Part shown: piece after piece, positions 3,201 through 59,145 of the stretch | Layout: each line of letters opens with the position of its first letter | How positions within the stretch are numbered: the stretch's first letter is position 1 | Sequence record: OQ031495 | Source of the DNA: Escherichia phage MRostami-2023e | Length of the DNA stretch: 64,000 nt | Reading direction: 5' to 3' (one strand) | The notes under the pieces: generated by a model | Databases searched by the model: none | What the model saw: the letters and a program-made list of their open reading frames with translations, nothing else | What the model was told of the DNA's origin: nothing | Translations under genes and position numbers: made by a program

Positions 3201-3488
3201 ATGATTCATCCATTTGACGTATCAGAATCCAAAATTGCTAATCTTCGTGGTCATCATAAGTGTAAATCAGTTTATTGTGCTAAATTGGTAAAACATCCTG
3301 GCGATGCACACTACGGGTGGTTAGAATGCGACGAAGTTGTTATTGAAATTCCGCCTGTAGATGCAGAATATCTTGAAGAAGGTGACCGCATTTATTTTGG
3401 CGAACTACACATCAGAGGTATCTATGGTAAAGACGAACTTGGGGCTGTTGAGGCTGAAGAGTCTTCCGACATTTATCCTGTCGAATGA
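3201..3488 (+). CDS. hypothetical protein (rIIB-denB intergenic slot)
   Basis: ORF with ATG 3201 after the terminator; the track ORF 3150-3488 would start inside the rIIB stop region. Confidence 0.5.
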   Translation: MIHPFDVSESKIANLRGHHKCKSVYCAKLVKHPGDAHYGWLECDEVVIEIPPVDAEYLEEGDRIYFGELHIRGIYGKDELGAVEAEESSDIYPVE

Positions 3489-3504
3489 GTTTTTGACTAG
3501 CGAA

Positions 3505-3981
3505 ATGAAGGTTAAGATCGCTGATACTGCTCGGTACTCGTTGAAACAAGATCCAGGTCAAATAAAAGAAGACGTTGTTCGACGTTGTAAGGTTGCAGTC
3601 TTTGCAGAGTATGTAGTAGCAAATTGGCTAGACGGATATGTTAATAAAGGTATTGAAGACGTCGAAGACCCGTACACGTATGCATGGGACGTGTTAGCTC
3701 ATCCCAAGTATTGTGGAATTCGTGTAGAAGTCAAGACGCACCAGATAGATTCTAAATGGATTTCGGTTACCACAGGATACAGTGGTGATTATCCTGGTGG
3801 TAATGGAATCAATATAGGGCCCTTCTTGAACCATCGAGTCGCAGATTGCATTATTATATTAGATGTCAAAGAAACCTCACCTGACGTCTTCTCTTATTCT
3901 ATAAAGTTTGTGGGAGACCATGAAGACCTAAAGAAAATCGTCCGCAAGAGCAACTACAGCGGGTGGTATCTTCATCTTTAA
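3505..3981 (+). CDS. denB: endonuclease IV (DenB)
   Basis: MKVKIADTARYSL..CKVAVFAEYVVANWL..KVEVKTHQIDSKWISVTTGYSGDYPGG matches T4 DenB as I recall it; position between rIIB and ndd. Confidence 0.85.
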   Translation: MKVKIADTARYSLKQDPGQIKEDVVRRCKVAVFAEYVVANWLDGYVNKGIEDVEDPYTYAWDVLAHPKYCGIRVEVKTHQIDSKWISVTTGYSGDYPGGNGINIGPFLNHRVADCIIILDVKETSPDVFSYSIKFVGDHEDLKKIVRKSNYSGWYLHL

Positions 3982-8103: not shown

Positions 8104-8448
8104 ATGAATAAGCTGAATATTATTAACGAACTTCGTAAATGTGCAGAACCTACTCAAGAAGGATGGGATATTTGGTACCACGGGGCTTATTTAGGGACAA
8201 TTGTAAAGATTAAAGCAGGCCAATATACGGTTATTCGTGAAAATNNNNNNNNNNNNNNNNNNNNNNNNNNNNNNNNNNNNCGTAAAAACTACATGGCAGC
8301 GATCAGTTCATTTGTTGATGCAGCTTACGAAATCTATAAAGAAGATTATAAAGAATATCAGCAGTCACAACCGGTTATTCGTTCGATTGGTGTAAATAAA
8401 CAAGCACAAAAATCTATTTGGCAACGTATTAAAGGATGGTTTAAATGA
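8104..8448 (+). CDS. hypothetical protein
   Basis: 114-aa ORF containing a 36-nt N block; ATGA overlap with the next ORF. Confidence 0.5.
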
Positions 8449-21509: not shown

Positions 21510-21779
21510 ATGGCTAAGAAAGAAGCAGTTGAATTTAATCAAGATGTGCATGGTGAAGAACTGGCTAAACTAGTCAAGGAAGCTTCCGATAACAAACTTA
21601 AAATTTCTGGTTATAATGAACTGATTAAAGACATTCGTACTCGTGCTAAAGAAGAGCTTGGTGTCGATGGAAAAATGTTTAATCGTTTGTTAGCTCTTTA
21701 TCATAAAGACGCTCGTGACCAATTTGAAGCTGAAAATGAAGAGGTAGTCGAGCTTTATGACACAGTTTTCACTAAGTGA
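21510..21779 (+). CDS. dsbA: DsbA, double-stranded DNA-binding late transcription enhancer
   Basis: 89 aa; MAKKEAVEFNQDVHGEELAKLVKEASDNKLKISGYNELIKDIR.. matches T4 DsbA. Confidence 0.9.
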   Translation: MAKKEAVEFNQDVHGEELAKLVKEASDNKLKISGYNELIKDIRTRAKEELGVDGKMFNRLLALYHKDARDQFEAENEEVVELYDTVFTK

Positions 21780-22095
21780 TATTAAACCGGTTGATGAGGC
21801 CGGTTTATCTGAACAAGAATTAGCAGTAAAACACGATAAAGATGATATCGCTAAATTGCTTGACCGCCAAGAAAACGGATTCATTATCGAATCTATGGTT
21901 GAACAATTTGGTATGTCTTATTTAGAAGCAACAACTGCTTTCTTGGAAGAAAATTCTATTCCAGAAACACAATTTGCTAAATTTATTCCTACAGGAATTG
22001 TTGAAAAAATTACAAGCGAAGCAATTGACGAAAACATGCTTCGCCCGTCAGTTGCTCGTGGTGAAAAAACTAATACGTTAGATTTCTTATTATGA
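21757..22095 (+). CDS. 33: gp33 late transcription co-activator
   Basis: 112 aa; MTQFSLSDIKPVDEAGLSEQEL..TNTLDFLL matches T4 gp33. Confidence 0.92.
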   Translation: MTQFSLSDIKPVDEAGLSEQELAVKHDKDDIAKLLDRQENGFIIESMVEQFGMSYLEATTAFLEENSIPETQFAKFIPTGIVEKITSEAIDENMLRPSVARGEKTNTLDFLL

Positions 22096-22774: not shown

Positions 22775-22782
22775 TATAAATA
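22775..22782 (+). promoter_or_regulatory. late promoter TATAAATA upstream of gene 32
   Basis: tataaata 22775-22782. Confidence 0.55.
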
Positions 22783-23876: not shown

Positions 23877-24281
23877 ATGGAAGTCGGAAAAACGTACATC
23901 ATTAACCCTTTATCTAAAAATGACTTTGNNNNNNNNNNNNNNNNNNNNNNNNNNNNNNNNNNNNNNNNNNNNNNNNNNNNNNNNNNNNNNNNNNNNNNNN
24001 NNNNNNNNNNNNNNNNNNNNNNNNNNNNNNNNNNNNNNNNNNNNNNNNNNNNNNNNNNNNNNNNNNNNNNNNNNNNNNNNNNNNNNNNNNNNNNNNNNNN
24101 NNNNNNNNNNNNNNNNNNNNNNNNNNNNNNNNNNNNNNNNTACTTTACCGAGGTAACATTAGAAAAGCCTCAACAGGTTAACGAAGGTATAGATTTGGGT
24201 GTAACAAAAATTCATTGTGTTGTAGATAAAACCAACGTCGATGAAATCATTGAACTTTTACAAAAAACTTTTAAAAAGTAG
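23877..24281 (+). CDS. hypothetical protein, mostly masked by a 212-nt N block
   Basis: ATG with RBS after promoter; ends ..IELLQKTFKK; interior unknown. Confidence 0.35.
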   Translation: MEVGKTYIINPLSKNDFXXXXXXXXXXXXXXXXXXXXXXXXXXXXXXXXXXXXXXXXXXXXXXXXXXXXXXXXXXXXXXXXXXXXXXXYFTEVTLEKPQQVNEGIDLGVTKIHCVVDKTNVDEIIELLQKTFKK

Positions 24282-25422: not shown

Positions 25423-26280
25423 AACAATACCAATACCTGATTAATGATATCCTAGAAAATGGCTACGAAACAGACGACCGTACAGGTACCGGCACTATTG
25501 CCCTGTTCGGAACTAAATTACGTTGGGATCTGACTAAAGGATTCCCTGCAGTAACAACTAAGAAATTAGCATGGAAAGCTTGTATTGCCGAGTTACTGTG
25601 GTTCATGTCCGGTTCTACCAATGTTAATGATTTGCGTATTCGTACTCATGGTAGTCTAATTGAAGGTAAAACTATTTGGGACGACAACTATGAAAATCAG
25701 GCAAAAGACCTTGGATATCATAGTGGTGAACTTGGTCCTATTTATGGTAAGCAATGGCGTGATTTTGGTGGTGTAGACCAATTAGTTGAAACAATCGACC
25801 GTATTAAAAAATTACCAACTGATCGTCGTCAAATTGTTTCTGCCTGGAATCCAGCTGAAATAAATCAAATGGCTCTTCCTCCTTGTCATATGTTCTATCA
25901 ATTTAATGTGCGTAATGGGCATCTTGATTTACAATGGTATCAACGCAGTGTAGATGTTTTCTTGGGCCTGCCGTTCAACATTGCCTCGTACGCTGCCTTG
26001 ACGCATATTGTAGCGAAGATGTGTAACCTTATCCCAGGTGATTTAGTGTTCTCAGGCGGCAACACGCATATCTACAGCAATCATGTAGAACAATGCAAAG
26101 AAGTTCTTCGTCGTGAACCTAAAGAGTTATGTNNNNNNNNNNNNNNNNNNNNNNNNNNNNNNNNNNNNNNNNNNNNNNNNNNNNNNNNNNNNNNNNNNNN
26201 NNNNNNNNNNNNNNNNNNNNNNTTTAGTTCTTAAAAATTACGAATCTCATCCAGCTATCAAAGCTAAAATGGCGGTATAA
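25419..26280 (+). CDS. td: thymidylate synthase; no intron; frame changes inside the 90-nt N block 26133-26222
   Basis: MKQYQYLINDILENGYETDDRTGTGT..PPCHMFYQF..; post-mask C-terminus LVLKNYESHPAIKAKMAV is in a different frame from the pre-mask part. Confidence 0.85.
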
Positions 26281-26527: not shown

Positions 26528-26622
26528 NNNNNNNNNNNNNNNNNNNNNNNNNNNNNNNNNNNNNNNNNNNNNNNNNNNNNNNNNNNNNNNNNNNNNNNNN
26601 NNNNNNNNNNNNNNGAGGACAT

Positions 26623-28933: not shown

Positions 28934-30112
28934 ATGAGTACAGTTTTTAACACGCAACAAGTCGATGTTTTGAATGAACCGATGTTCTTTGGTTCTGGTC
29001 TTGGCCTCGCACGTTATGATATTCAGCGACATAAAGTTTTTGAAGAACTTATTGAAAAGCAATTGTCGTTTTTCTGGCGCCCAGAAGAGGTAAACTTGAT
29101 GTTGGACTCTGCGCAGTTCAATAAGCTTCCTCAGTTCCAACAGGACATCTTTACAAACAATCTTAAGTATCAATCATTATTAGATTCTATCCAAGGCAGG
29201 GCCCCATCTGCGGTACTTATGGCACTGATTTCTGACCCTTCATTAGATACATGGGTTGCAACATGGACATTCAGTGAAACTATTCACTCTCGTTCGTACA
29301 CTCATATTATGCGAAATCTTTATACCGATCCATCCAAAGTATTTGATGAGATTGTATTAGACGAAGCAATCATGAAACGAGCTGAATCCATTGGACGTTA
29401 TTATGATGACGTTCTGATTAAAACCCGTGAATGGGAAAANNNNNNNNNNNNNNNNNNNNNNNNNNNNNNNNNNNNNNNNNNNNNNNNNNNNNNNNNNNNN
29501 NNNNNNNNNNNNNNNNNNNNNNCTAAACGTGCTTTAATGAAGTCTCTTTATCTCTGTTTGCATGTTATCAACGCCTTAGAAGCTATTCGTTTTTACGTAT
29601 CATTTGCATGTACTTTCAACTTCCATAAAAATATGGAAATTATGGAAGGTAATGCAAAGATTATGAAGTTCATTGCTCGTGACGAACAACTCCATCTCAA
29701 GGGTACTCAGTACATTATCCGTCAACTTCAATCTGGTACTGACGGTGATGAGTGGGTTCAAATTGCTAAAGAATGTGAACAAGAAGCAGTTGACATTTTT
29801 ATGGAAGTAAATAGTCAAGAGAAGGAATGGGCTGCACACCTCTTTAAAGATGGTACATGTCCAGGTATCAATACGCAGAGTATGTGTGCTTTTGTTGATT
29901 ACTTGACTGTGTCTCGTATGAAACAGTGTGGTTTGCCATGCCCAATCACTGATGCTCCGACCAAGCATCCGTATCCTTGGATTCGTGAATATCTGAACTC
30001 TGATTTAGTTCAAGCAGCTCCTCAGGAAGTTGAAATCAGTTCTTATCTTGTCGCACAAATTGATAATGATGTAGACCAAAATGTAATCAATTCATACAAA
30101 AAATATTTCTAA
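28934..30112 (+). CDS. nrdB: ribonucleoside-diphosphate reductase beta subunit; no intron
   Basis: 392 aa; matches T4 NrdB; 83-nt N block keeps frame. Confidence 0.95.
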   Translation: MSTVFNTQQVDVLNEPMFFGSGLGLARYDIQRHKVFEELIEKQLSFFWRPEEVNLMLDSAQFNKLPQFQQDIFTNNLKYQSLLDSIQGRAPSAVLMALISDPSLDTWVATWTFSETIHSRSYTHIMRNLYTDPSKVFDEIVLDEAIMKRAESIGRYYDDVLIKTREWEXXXXXXXXXXXXXXXXXXXXXXXXXXXXXKRALMKSLYLCLHVINALEAIRFYVSFACTFNFHKNMEIMEGNAKIMKFIARDEQLHLKGTQYIIRQLQSGTDGDEWVQIAKECEQEAVDIFMEVNSQEKEWAAHLFKDGTCPGINTQSMCAFVDYLTVSRMKQCGLPCPITDAPTKHPYPWIREYLNSDLVQAAPQEVEISSYLVAQIDNDVDQNVINSYKKYF

Positions 30113-37940: not shown

Positions 37941-38064
37941 TATAAATAACTATATGAAGAGAACACTCTTCTAAGCGGTAGCCTACAACTGAGAGACTTG
38001 TCGAAAGGAAGTGAAATTCAGACGAACGTGGCTACTAAATATTATCTCGAATTGAGAATTTAAA

Positions 38065-38313: not shown

Positions 38314-38582
38314 GTTNNNNNNNNNNNNNNNNNNNNNNNNNNNNNNNNNNNNNNNNNNNNNNNNNNNNNNNNNNNNNNNNCCCCGGCAGTTTTACGGTGT
38401 ACCTCTTGAATGTATTTTATACTATCACGCGTCAGAAAAAGGTTATCTGTCTAAGTCGTGGTTGGTATGATGACGAGGTTTATGGTTATCCTGTCGTTAA
38501 ATATCCAAAACCTATGTTCCCCTTGAGGGCTTGCGCAGGCAATGTCAATAAGTCCTGCATTTTCATTTAAAGAGAATTTATA

Positions 38583-40603: not shown

Positions 40604-40788
40604 ATTAATCCAGAAATTGTTTGGTACGGAAATGATCGAAGTTACTTATCGTGTAACAGACTNNNNNNNNNNNNNNNNNNNNNNNGAACCATTCGTTTAG
40701 TCAATTAAAATGCCTAAAAATGACGGAAATTTATCTATCGAAGACCGTATACCTGGATACGGCCATTGGGCTGATGTTGAAATTATAA

Positions 40789-50405: not shown

Positions 50406-50935
50406 TCAAGCAATCCAATAATTTCTGCTATACCCTTAATAGGGCCATTAGGGCCTGGAATAGCAATAGTTGTCGAAAGGTCTTCTGCCCATTTGATTAC
50501 AAAAGCAGGCATCTCAAGGAAAGAAATTTCTTTCTCTTCGTCATTAACTTTTATTAAGCAATTTGATAGCATTTCACTGATTGTAGCGAATTGTTCAAAT
50601 TTGCCTGGAGGTCTAAAATAAAAAGTATTGCCTTGGAATTGGAATTCTGTTCGTTGGCATACATAGACGTCATCTAGTTTATACGTGAATCCGTCTTTTT
50701 CAACTTCAGACTTAAGTTTGTTATTAAATTCCAATATGTGTAGACATGCAAAATCAAAATCTGCAGGACTCATATTTTTACAAATAGAATCAGCTAAGAT
50801 TTTCATGTTTTCATCAGGACCTTTAACGTCCTTTAAAAGATTATAATGTTTGAGCCCTAATTTAGGAATCATTACCTTTTTATTAGACTGTGGTAGAATT
50901 ATTTTCTTTAGAGGTAGAATCAGATTTAAGTTCAT
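50402..50935 (-). CDS. 28: gp28 baseplate distal hub subunit
   Basis: 177 aa, same as T4 gp28; overlaps gp29 start. Confidence 0.9.
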
Positions 50936-52055
50936 TTTTAACCTTAACTGGGTTAACAGGTTCTAACACCATTGAGTTGGTAAACATGTACAGATGAGTT
51001 TGTGAGTTATTATTTGATAACTCATGAATAACTTCATCGACGTAAAATTCGGATTTGAATTGGTTCTTTTGGTCAACAAATATAATTTTAGTAGCAGGCG
51101 TTATGTTAAAATTACCTGTAGTAGTGCATTTAGCATATCCATCATATTGAGCCATTGTCTGAAGACGACTTGCTTCTTCAAATCCATTACGATAAGTCAT
51201 TTCGGAATATCCACCGGATCTTGACACAACAATAGCATTATCACCATCGCCTGTAACAATAACCGGAATAGATGTATCTAAAAATGAATGAGCGAATATC
51301 GTGGCGTTTTTAATAGGGTCTCTTGTAAATTGGTTAGCTTTAGTCATCCAGGTGAAATCCCATACTAATGGATACTCAAGCTCTTGAATATACTGACCTA
51401 CGGTATTTGGCTCGCCTACAATCATCTTAATGCCTTCCTGACCAATAAGAGTATCATAGTCAATCATGTTTACGCCTAAAATATCTTGCCATACGAATAC
51501 GAACTTATCACTCGCTGTAGCAAGTCCTAATTCTCTGACATATGCCAAATAATCATCAAATGTGCTTGTCCAAGGGATATCAGGAACATAAGCATTAATA
51601 GTGTTTATTGGCGGAGTAATTAACGCACGGTCTTTGTATATGACACCTAACATTTCACGTATAGATTCTCCTGCGTCCGGGAAGAATGGCCGCCCAAATT
51701 TAAGGTTCTCTATAGAATGTATTGTTCCAAGCTCAATTGCAATAATATTGTCACCTTTTGAGTCCACAGACACAGAATAATGTTTGCATCCATAAATTCG
51801 AGTTCTAACTTGGAGAGGCGTGTTTGAATTTGAAACAGAGATTTGAACTATCTGTCTACCGTCCATTTTAGTGTGGATGTTTTTAGTGTCATAAAATTGA
51901 AGAATCCCTTCATTTCTTCCATATAACGAATCTCGCATGGTTAAAGTTGTTATTGTTGCTGCGAGTTCAACGTATCTATTTTCTTGCCAAGCCGAATAAT
52001 CTTGGTATAATTTAACGCTTAAGTTAGGATATCCTGGACGTTGGAATACTTTCAT
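50883..52055 (-). CDS. 27: gp27 baseplate hub subunit
   Basis: 390 aa; T4 gp27 is 391 aa. Confidence 0.93.
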
Positions 52056-52804
52056 TTTTTATGGTCCTTTTCTACTAATGTTAAAGCAATACCACGTTCA
52101 ACAGGAATCATTTGCATAATAGAATCCAATGTGTATTGACTCTTTACCAGTGAATGGTTTATCTGATAGAATGTAAAAATCTCATCAGGGTTAACTAACA
52201 ATTTAAAAACCTCTAAGATATCAGTATATGTTTTAACATGACGTTCACAACAACCTAATCTAAGGGTCAAATTAATAGGGTTCATAGAAGCAATAACCTT
52301 CTCAAGAGAGTCAATATCTATTGCTTCTATTACTTGGATTTGGTTCTCTTCAGTCAAATCATTCCATGGGTACCATTCATCATTATAATATATTTCTTTT
52401 ATGTTTTCACTTATCATTAATGCTTTATTGTCATAAAACTTTTCAGGGAAAGAAAAACGTATTTTTATACCAGCAACATCAAGTTCAGGTTCGACTAGTT
52501 CTTTTTGATATATCTCAAATGGCGCAGTTTTTTCTTTAGAGCATTTAGGGCAAGTGAAAATAACGGGAACTTTTGTTTTGCCTATAGAGCCTGCAAAAAC
52601 TTGCAGGAATATAAATGGTTGCCATGTTTTAGGGTACTCGCCAAAATAATCATCAATCAGATCGGCAATTATTTCTTTTTGTTCTTGCGGCGAACGATGT
52701 TCGATATCATTTCTAACTAGTAAAAAGTCTCTATAATCCGCCACAGTGAACGGCTTAAAACGATGAACACCATCCGGTAATTTACAACGAATTATATTAG
52801 CCAT
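52052..52804 (-). CDS. 51: gp51 baseplate hub assembly catalyst
   Basis: 250 aa; position upstream of gp27, divergent from gp26. Confidence 0.9.
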
Positions 52805-52821
52805 AATTACTCCTTTTCTAT

Positions 52822-52833
52822 TATTTATAAATA
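52822..52833. promoter_or_regulatory. palindromic divergent late promoter TATTTATAAATA (TATAAATA on both strands) for genes 51 and 26
   Basis: tatttataaata in the 47-bp gap between the divergent gp51 and gp26 start codons. Confidence 0.6.
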
Positions 52834-52851
52834 CACAATAAAGGAGTTAAC

Positions 52852-53478
52852 ATGTACAAATATACGTTTACCGTACGTTTAGGCGATAAAGAAGTGAATT
52901 GTAGAGCCTTTACTTTAAAAGAATATTTAGGACTCATAGGTGCGCGGGCTACCGGTACTATTGAATCAGCAGTGAACAATATTATCACTAATTGCTCTAA
53001 CGCTAAAAACTTGACTAAACAAGAAGCCGAGTTATTGTTGGTAAATCTGTGGGCACATTCGTTAGGTGAAGTGAATCAAGAACACACCTGGAATTGTTCC
53101 TGTGGGCATTCATTTCAAGTCTATATGAATTTATTGCACACTCAATTAGATGAACAGGCCGATCCCTGGTATTCGTTTAGTGGTATTAAAATTAAGTTCC
53201 GTCAACCTAAATTATTTGACGATAAAAATATCGCATTAATGATTGCTTCATGTATTGAGGCCGTTTTTGTAAATGGAGAGTCCATCGCTGTTGAAGATTT
53301 AACTGAAGCAGAAATAAACGACCTTTACGGCCTTATAACAGAAGATGATATGATCAATATTAAAAATCTTTTGGTGTCGCCATCAATTTATCTGGCAACC
53401 CCTATTAAATGTCCCAAATGTGGGGCGTCACACGTTCACACAATACGAGGCCTCAAAGAATTCTTTGAGTTACTATAA
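52852..53478 (+). CDS. 26: gp26 baseplate hub subunit
   Basis: 208 aa, same as T4 gp26. Confidence 0.9.
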   Translation: MYKYTFTVRLGDKEVNCRAFTLKEYLGLIGARATGTIESAVNNIITNCSNAKNLTKQEAELLLVNLWAHSLGEVNQEHTWNCSCGHSFQVYMNLLHTQLDEQADPWYSFSGIKIKFRQPKLFDDKNIALMIASCIEAVFVNGESIAVEDLTEAEINDLYGLITEDDMINIKNLLVSPSIYLATPIKCPKCGASHVHTIRGLKEFFELL

Positions 53479-53876
53479 TGTCTAATATCAATAAACTTTA
53501 TTCAGATATCGACCCAGAAATGCGTATGGATTGGAACAAGGACGTTGCTCGTTCTGTAGGACTTCGTTCTATTAAAAATAGTCTTCTTGGCATAGTGACA
53601 ACTAGAAAAGGCTCACGCCCCTTCGACCCTGAATTTGGATGCGATTTGGTTGATGAACTTTTCGAGAACATGACACCACTTACAGCCGATACGATTGAGC
53701 GTAATATCCAGGCAGCCGTCCGTAACTATGAGCCGCGCATCGACAAACTTTCTGTAAGTGTAACGCCAGTATATGATGACTATACAGTTATAGTAGAGAT
53801 TAGATTTTCGGTCGTAGATAACCCTGATGATATCGAACAAATCAAACTTCAGTTAGCATCAAGCAATAGAGTGTAA
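53478..53876 (+). CDS. 25: gp25 baseplate wedge subunit
   Basis: 132 aa; MSNINKLYSDIDPEMRMDWNKDVAR.. matches T4 gp25. Confidence 0.93.
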   Translation: MSNINKLYSDIDPEMRMDWNKDVARSVGLRSIKNSLLGIVTTRKGSRPFDPEFGCDLVDELFENMTPLTADTIERNIQAAVRNYEPRIDKLSVSVTPVYDDYTVIVEIRFSVVDNPDDIEQIKLQLASSNRV

Positions 53877-54370: not shown

Positions 54371-54594
54371 TGCGTTATTCAATTGAAGATGCCTTTAATA
54401 ATGATGAAGAATTTGAAACTGAAATTAAATTCTTAATGGAAAAGTATCGTCTACGTCGTCAGGATATTCGTATCCTGGCAGACCATCCTTGTGGCGAAGA
54501 CGTCCTTTATATTAAAGGGAAGTTTGCTGGGTACATCGACGAGTATTTTTATACAAAAGATATGGGTATCGATATGTGCATGCGAGTTATATAA
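54370..54594 (+). CDS. hypothetical protein (uvsY.-1 position)
   Basis: 74-aa ORF, ATGA overlap with uvsY. Confidence 0.5.
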   Translation: MRYSIEDAFNNDEEFETEIKFLMEKYRLRRQDIRILADHPCGEDVLYIKGKFAGYIDEYFYTKDMGIDMCMRVI

Positions 54595-54626
54595 ATAGAT
54601 ATGTAATTTCAACTTAGGAGGCAATC

Positions 54627-57353: not shown

Positions 57354-58484
57354 ATGGCTTTTACAGTTGATATAACTCCTAAAACACCTACTGGAGTTAT
57401 AGATGAGACTAAGCAGTTTACTGCTACACCCAGTGGTGAAACTGGGGGCGGAACTATTACATATGCTTGGTCTGTGGATGATGTTCCACAAGATGGATCT
57501 GAAGCAACTTTTAGTTATGTACTAAAAGGACCTGCCGGTCAAAAGACTATTAAAGTAGTTGCAACAAATACAGTTCCAGAAGCTGAAGCTGAAACAGCAG
57601 AAGCTTCTACAACTATCACAGTTCAAAACAAGACACAGACAACTACCTTGGCAGTAACTCCCAATAGTCCTTCAGCCGGAGTAATTGGAACCCCAGTTCA
57701 ATTTACTGCTGCCTTAGCTTCTCAACCGGTTGGAGCGTCTGCTACGTATCAGTGGTATGTAGATGATTCACAGGTTGGTGGAGAAACTAACTCTACATTT
57801 AGCTATACTCCGACTACAAGTGGAGTAAAAAGAATTAAATGTGTAGCCCAAGTAACCGCGACAGATTATGATGCAAAGGAAGTTACTTCGAATGAAGTAT
57901 CATTAACGGTTAATAAGAAGACAATGAATCCACGGGTTACATTGACTCCTCCTTCTATTAACGTTCAGCAAGATGCTTCGGCTACATTTACCGCTAATGT
58001 CACTGNNNNNNNNNNNNNNNNNNNNNNNNNNNNNNNNNNNNNNNNNNNNNNNNNNNNNNNNNNNNNNTCAACTAATGTATACACCGTTGATACATCATCT
58101 ATTGGAAGTCAAACTATTGAAGTTACTGCAACTGTTACTGCTACTGATTATGATAGCAAAACTATCACAGCAGAAGGTCAAGTTCAGGTAACTGATAAAG
58201 TTGCTCCAGAACCAGAAGGTGAATTACCTTATGTTCATCCTCTTCCACATCGTAGCTCAGCTTACANNNNNNNNGGTTGGTGGGTTATGGATGAAATCCA
58301 AAAAATGACTGAAGAAGGTAAAGATTGGAAAACTGAAGATCCAGATAGTAAGTATTACTTGCATCGTTATACGCTTCAGAAGATGATGAAAGACTATCCA
58401 GAAGTTGATGTTCAAGAATCACGTAATGGATACATCATCCATAAAACTGCTTTGGAAACTGGTATCATCTATACATATCCATAA
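57354..58484 (+). CDS. hoc: Hoc, highly immunogenic outer capsid protein (Ig-like domains)
   Basis: 376 aa; MAFTVDITPKTPTGVIDETKQFTATPSG.. and C-terminus ..LPYVHPLPHRSSAY..; two N blocks keep frame. Confidence 0.93.
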   Translation: MAFTVDITPKTPTGVIDETKQFTATPSGETGGGTITYAWSVDDVPQDGSEATFSYVLKGPAGQKTIKVVATNTVPEAEAETAEASTTITVQNKTQTTTLAVTPNSPSAGVIGTPVQFTAALASQPVGASATYQWYVDDSQVGGETNSTFSYTPTTSGVKRIKCVAQVTATDYDAKEVTSNEVSLTVNKKTMNPRVTLTPPSINVQQDASATFTANVTXXXXXXXXXXXXXXXXXXXXXSTNVYTVDTSSIGSQTIEVTATVTATDYDSKTITAEGQVQVTDKVAPEPEGELPYVHPLPHRSSAYXXXGWWVMDEIQKMTEEGKDWKTEDPDSKYYLHRYTLQKMMKDYPEVDVQESRNGYIIHKTALETGIIYTYP

Positions 58485-59026: not shown

Positions 59027-59145
59027 TATGCTTTACATTTTTTGATGGTATAATGAATCTAGGTTCTATCCATTCAAATTAAACATCTGGTCGGAGACAG
59101 AGTCTCTGCTAATTATTTTGATATTATTATTTATAATGGTGATTT

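Follow-up and report, generated by a model that had tools for sequence, protein, structure and literature searches.

Divergent transcription from the overlapping promoters of T4 genes 51 and 26 was reportedly mapped experimentally by Scarlato et al. in 1989. The late promoter box of T4 occupies positions -13 to -6 (Nolan et al. 2006, PMC1524935) and is recognised by gp55-RNA polymerase without a -35 element (PMC2988020). Late transcripts of this phage run in both directions and 50 consensus late sites have been listed, although caution is advisable, as not all of these sites have been proven active in vivo (PMC2988020). During recognition, gp55 reads flipped non-template bases at -12, -9 and -8, and gp45 encircles the DNA upstream (PMC7892883). 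Activation by the gp45 clamp requires that it be loaded at a nick in the non-transcribed strand; the polarity of activation is thereby set by the orientation of the clamp (PMC2988020).

The window analysed here, i.e. a stretch of 64,000 nucleotides of Escherichia phage MRostami-2023e (OQ031495), belongs to a Mosigvirus, an RB69-like T4-type phage. Its 51/26 region is 100% identical to that of Escherichia phage vB_EQ1 and 95-99% identical to those of about 140 other RB69-group (Mosigvirus) phages. Both ORFs flanking the gap matched the T4_baseplate family (PF12322), and their outward neighbours were assigned by Pfam to gp27 (Phage-tail_1/2) on the left and gp25 (GPW_gp25) on the right. From this, the ORFs can be identified as genes 51 (minus strand) and 26 (plus strand), the names they had already received in the preliminary description. 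Gene 51 heads a leftward unit, its stop overlapping the start of gene 27 (50883-52055), while gene 26 heads a rightward unit and overlaps gene 25 (53478-53876) in the same stop-to-start manner.

The gap between the two genes contains a 12-bp perfect palindrome, TATTTATAAATA, in the sequence context ...ccttttctattaTTTATAAATAcacaat... (Table 1). The octamer TATAAATA can be read perfectly on both strands of this palindrome, and the two boxes share 4 bp (TATA, 52826-52829). They thus form an overlapping divergent pair, with elements on opposite strands facing divergent genes. The distance from the end of the box to the start codon is 17 nt for gene 51 and 18 nt for gene 26. On both sides of the gap, the box is followed by AAAGGAG and then, 5 nt further on, by ATG. 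The bases just downstream of the boxes are A/T-rich (CACAAT, 4/6, and ATAGAA, 5/6). The preliminary description had placed the palindrome in a 47-bp gap and had read it as two overlapping boxes, one per strand, about 20 nt from the start codons; ORF bounds and sequence agree with it in each of these respects.

Table 1. Positions of the features discussed in the text, given for the window unless another genome is named
Feature	Position	Strand	Remarks
Gene 51, baseplate hub assembly protein, 250 aa	52052..52804	-	PF12322, E 4.6e-59
Gap 51/26, 47 bp	52805..52851		From ORF bounds 52804 (minus) and 52852 (plus)
Shine-Dalgarno AAAGGAG of gene 51	52810..52816	-	5 nt before ATG at 52804-52802; left arm of inverted repeat I6
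P51, predicted late promoter box TATAAATA of gene 51, -13 to -6	52822..52829	-	Predicted start site ~52816 (A)
Palindrome TATTTATAAATA, two overlapping predicted late-promoter boxes	52822..52833	.	From sequence; invariant in 11 genus-level lineages
P26, predicted late promoter box TATAAATA of gene 26, -13 to -6	52826..52833	+	Predicted start site ~52838-52840
Shine-Dalgarno AAAGGAG of gene 26	52840..52846	+	5 nt before ATG at 52852; right arm of inverted repeat I6
Gene 26, baseplate hub protein, 208 aa	52852..53478	+	PF12322, E 8.2e-60
Inverted repeat I6, 15 nt	52802..52816 and 52840..52854		Shine-Dalgarno and ATG regions
Hairpin CUCAAAGAAUUCUUUGAG	53452..53469		Gene 26-25 junction (53447-53480)
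dsbA	21510..21779
Gene 33, late coactivator	21757..22095		PF16805, E 3.5e-26
Perfect box TATAAATA	22775..22782	+	Intergenic; 80 nt before gene 32
Perfect box TATAAATA	37941..37948	+	Intergenic; 116 nt before 82-aa ORF
Perfect box TATAAATA	54590..54597	+	29 nt upstream of uvsY.-2 homolog
Perfect box TATAAATA	59128..59135	-	Intergenic; no ORF start nearby
T4 palindrome TATTTATAAATA	NC_000866, 116450..116461		Between genes 26 and 51
Slopekvirus-like tandem locus	Klebsiella phage Earwig_ER32, 9..2526; Pectobacterium phage POP12, 37..2526		51/26 co-directional

We examined whether such boxes occur elsewhere in the window. The raw count of TATAAATA was in only modest excess (13 against 7.0 +/- 2.7 in shuffles); the exact 12-mer TATTTATAAATA occurred once, and three matches to it were found at one mismatch or less, against 1.1 expected. 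Both the 37% GC content of the genome and the modestly raised box count would also suit a 12-mer that had arisen by chance in an AT-rich intergenic gap. As the raw-count signal was weak, a positional test took its place. Of the 13 boxes, eight precede a same-strand ATG by 15-32 nt, a class of slots which makes up 1.27% of window positions (binomial P 8e-13), and this argues against a chance origin. The genes behind the positioned boxes are t (box-to-start distance of 20 nt), 36 (24 nt), 34 (30 nt), 24 (27 nt), uvsW (29 nt), a homolog of uvsY.-2, 51 and 26. The boxes of genes 51 and 26 fall within the 17-30 nt range common to the six other positioned boxes in the window. These six single late promoters share with the pair a perfect TATAAATA, located 20-30 nt upstream and followed by a Shine-Dalgarno sequence; unlike the pair, they are unidirectional and none of them lies within a palindrome.

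Late boxes at the expected distance had previously been noted upstream of t, 36, 34, 24, uvsW and 32. For the first five genes this was borne out (20-30 nt), whereas the perfect intergenic box before gene 32 lies off the standard distance. The box preceding the uvsY.-2 homolog (55 aa, DUF2685) was absent from that list; it is annotated as a late promoter in phage SA79RD. The two remaining intergenic boxes in Table 1, one preceding the 82-aa ORF and one with no ORF start nearby, are not at the standard distance either. The window also contains many masked runs of N (1269-1332, 8245-8280, 12229 to beyond 12594, 24082-24140 and 26133-26222, with 26528-26614, 29440-29522, 38317-38380, 40663-40685 and 58006-58067 as further examples). 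None of the runs touches the 51/26 region. Near the boxes at 37941-37948 and 59128-59135, ORFs may lie concealed by the runs at 38317-38380 and 58006-58067, respectively.

When the 51/26 region was compared among 17 diverse T4-like phages, the 12-mer proved to be 100% invariant in 11 genus-level lineages, namely Tequatrovirus, Mosigvirus, Karamvirus, Gelderlandvirus, Gaprivervirus, Kagamiyamavirus, Jiaodavirus, Zedzedvirus (an Acinetobacter phage), Muldoonvirus, Dhakavirus and Klebsiella phage HMGUkp2. Within 30 nt on each side of it, the frequency of the top base was only about 0.5 in these lineages, i.e. the flanks have diverged to background, and the palindrome lay between 15 and 33 nt from the start codons. 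A conserved -35 element was not found, as the upstream and flanking columns vary across the 11 lineages. Judging from this comparison, only the promoter element is held fixed in the 51/26 gap. The conservation of the 12-mer against diverged flanks effectively refutes the chance reading, to which we assign practically no probability.

Taken together, the palindrome very probably represents two T4-type late promoters placed back to back, as far as can be judged from sequence. All features of T4 late promoters that can be tested at this level were found: the 8-bp box, its position, the AT-rich downstream bases, the lack of a -35 element, and the late factors (some via RB69). All sequence-level and comparative tests support the earlier proposal of a compact bidirectional late promoter for baseplate hub genes. 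It is backed by i) perfect boxes at the standard distance from Shine-Dalgarno sequence and start codon, ii) identity with T4 and invariance in the 11 lineages, iii) the presence of gp33 in the window and of gp55, gp45 and gp44/62 in RB69, and iv) annotations in phages SA79RD and Lutter. As for iii), the gp33 gene adjoins dsbA, gene 59 and rnh; gp55 and gp45 are located outside the window, and they and the clamp loader are represented by proxy through RB69, a phage of the same genus with an identical 51/26 gap, which encodes gp55, gp45, gp44 and gp62. As for iv), SA79RD (Mosigvirus, OL960576), 99% identical to the window in the 51/26 region, has both boxes annotated as regulatory/promoter with the notes 'similar to TATAAATA T4-late promoter', and in Lutter (Tequatrovirus, NC_054924) both are annotated as promoters, unlabelled as to type. 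In either record there is one annotation per strand at the orthologous position, based on sequence similarity and not on experiments. A literature search for the 12-mer TATTTATAAATA retrieved only unrelated papers.

The similarity of TATAAA to TATAAT might alternatively suggest a host sigma-70 promoter with a -10-like (early) element, or else a MotA-dependent middle promoter. A consensus scan did return one local match, TAGAAA-18-TATAAT, on the minus strand (52820..52791). Its -10 element lies inside the first codons of gene 51, and such a promoter cannot serve gene 51 because the element is part of the coding sequence. Moreover, consensus matches in the region were at the chance level (5 against 4.0 +/- 2.1 in shuffles), no GCTT MotA box was present in the 47-bp gap, and baseplate genes are of the late class. 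On these grounds we rejected a sigma-70 or middle promoter, which is highly improbable.

Under the late-promoter reading, the RNA polymerase core of the host, equipped with the phage sigma factor gp55, would, late in infection, recognise TATAAATA on the non-template strand, with DNA opening about 6 nt upstream of the start site. The plus-strand box would give rise to a 26-25 transcript starting near 52839 and the minus-strand box, read from 52829 to 52822, to a 51-27-28... transcript starting near 52816. Both mRNA leaders would be about 12-14 nt long and begin at or just before the Shine-Dalgarno sequence. As exact spacing puts +1 of P26 on a T (52839), the real start may be shifted by 1 nt. 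Initiation would be boosted by the gp45 sliding clamp acting through gp33 and, since the orientation of the clamp on DNA is fixed, any one clamp should be able to activate either P51 or P26 but not both. With 23 bp between the predicted starts and 4 bp common to the two boxes, two polymerase complexes presumably could not share the site, so that P51 and P26 would fire alternately. The scheme thus predicts where the transcripts start, that both boxes are active and mutually exclusive, and that clamp orientation chooses between them; that both promoters are active and in competition for occupancy we infer from the separation of the starts and the size of the polymerase footprint.

It might be objected that only one of the boxes works. 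Any palindrome of this kind necessarily gives a box on both strands, one of which could be a mere by-product, with the second gene transcribed by read-through or from another promoter, and proof of activity does not extend to every T4 consensus site (PMC2988020). We consider a single active box unlikely, as each gene is the first of its own divergent unit and the gap offers no other source of transcription: diverging from the gap, neither gene is reachable by read-through from the other, and no other promoter-like element for either was present within the 47 bp. In addition, Krischvirus retains a TAAATA-type box on each strand in spite of its broken palindrome, suggesting a need for both directions.

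The palindrome could also serve mainly as a site for a dimeric DNA-binding protein, or extrude as a cruciform or hairpin. It is perfect over 12 bp, DsbA is encoded in the window, and phage DsbA has been reported to bind AT-rich sites overlapping late promoters. A protein-binding palindrome is nevertheless unnecessary as an explanation, since none of the 12 bases falls outside the two consensus boxes, which fully explain the invariance; dsbA is, furthermore, non-essential in T4. In the window, perfect palindromes of 12 nt are not in themselves rare, although the palindrome listing was dominated by runs of N and showed only that this length is not unusual. The single-stranded DNA fold of 52796-52860 (-4.6 kcal/mol, z -1.41) was no better than those of shuffled sequences, and a hairpin or cruciform was therefore rejected. 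We regard a primary role in protein binding or cruciform formation as very unlikely, and retain the interpretation as paired late promoters.

The genes on the two sides of the gap are themselves related. Proteins gp51 and gp26 both match PF12322 end to end and align by BLASTP with 24% identity over about 200 aa (E 2e-9). The Shine-Dalgarno and ATG regions form the 15-nt inverted repeat I6, nearly concentric with the promoter palindrome. By sequence comparison, gp51 and gp26 are paralogs in a mirror-image arrangement around the palindrome, and owing to this paralogy and the mirrored Shine-Dalgarno/ATG arms, the locus resembles an inverted duplication of a promoter-Shine-Dalgarno-gene unit, with the whole gap as its axis. 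Accordingly, one might ask whether the 4-bp overlap reflects more than a compact layout. It could mark the ancient axis of such a duplication, as the paralogy and the mirrored ribosome-binding sites might indicate, or it could constitute a strict either/or switch; we hold that either is the case to be possible but rather doubtful. Were the switch to operate, the orientation of the gp45 clamp would decide between the 51-27-28-29 arm and the 26-25 arm of the hub cluster, and the direction of clamp loading by replication forks or nicks would set which arm is transcribed.

Two further observations concern gene 26. At its junction with gene 25, the hairpin CUCAAAGAAUUCUUUGAG is located between GAGG and the gene 25 AUG (53478), with an RNA fold of -8.6 kcal/mol (z -1.98). 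It resembles the structured translation-initiation region of gene 25 in T4-even phages (cited in PMC3014915). Within gene 26 itself, T4 annotates an internal in-frame product, 26' (T4 locus 3303-3590, minus strand).

As a discovery, the element carries little weight: it is a feature already known, the RB69-group copy of the long-known T4 P51/P26 pair, and is annotated in related GenBank records. It is rather useful as a clean positive control, as a reader without tools recognised a functional regulatory element from sequence. In T4, the identical 12-mer lies between the same divergent genes, has the same 4-bp overlap and is flanked on either side by a Shine-Dalgarno sequence and a start codon. 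The T4 gap measures 50 bp as compared with 47 bp in the window; the palindrome is 21 nt from the start of gene 26 in T4 and 18 nt in the window, and 17 nt from that of gene 51 in both. The flanking bases differ between the two phages, and gp51 of the window is about 72% identical to that of the T4 group (72% by tblastn).

Outside the 11 lineages, other arrangements were observed. In Krischvirus (G2494, fetched locus 827-898), the sequence TATTTTATAAATA contains one extra T that disrupts the left box; gene 26 has a separate ACTAAATA further out. Two Aeromonas phages (Tulanevirus, AS4; fetched loci ~854-904) carry a 10-bp palindrome, TATTTAAATA, which reads as TTTAAATA on each strand. Both groups share with the window the divergence of genes 51 and 26 and the presence of TAAATA-type cores in either orientation. 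By contrast, in Slopekvirus-like phages genes 54-51-26-25 are all tightly packed on one strand, with no divergent promoter gap; in view of this tandem order, the inversion may have come later. The overlapping bidirectional element thus resists change, its 12-mer being frozen in 11 lineages, in contrast to the 1-bp insertion in Krischvirus, the form 2 bp shorter in Aeromonas phages, and its absence where 51 and 26 stand in tandem.
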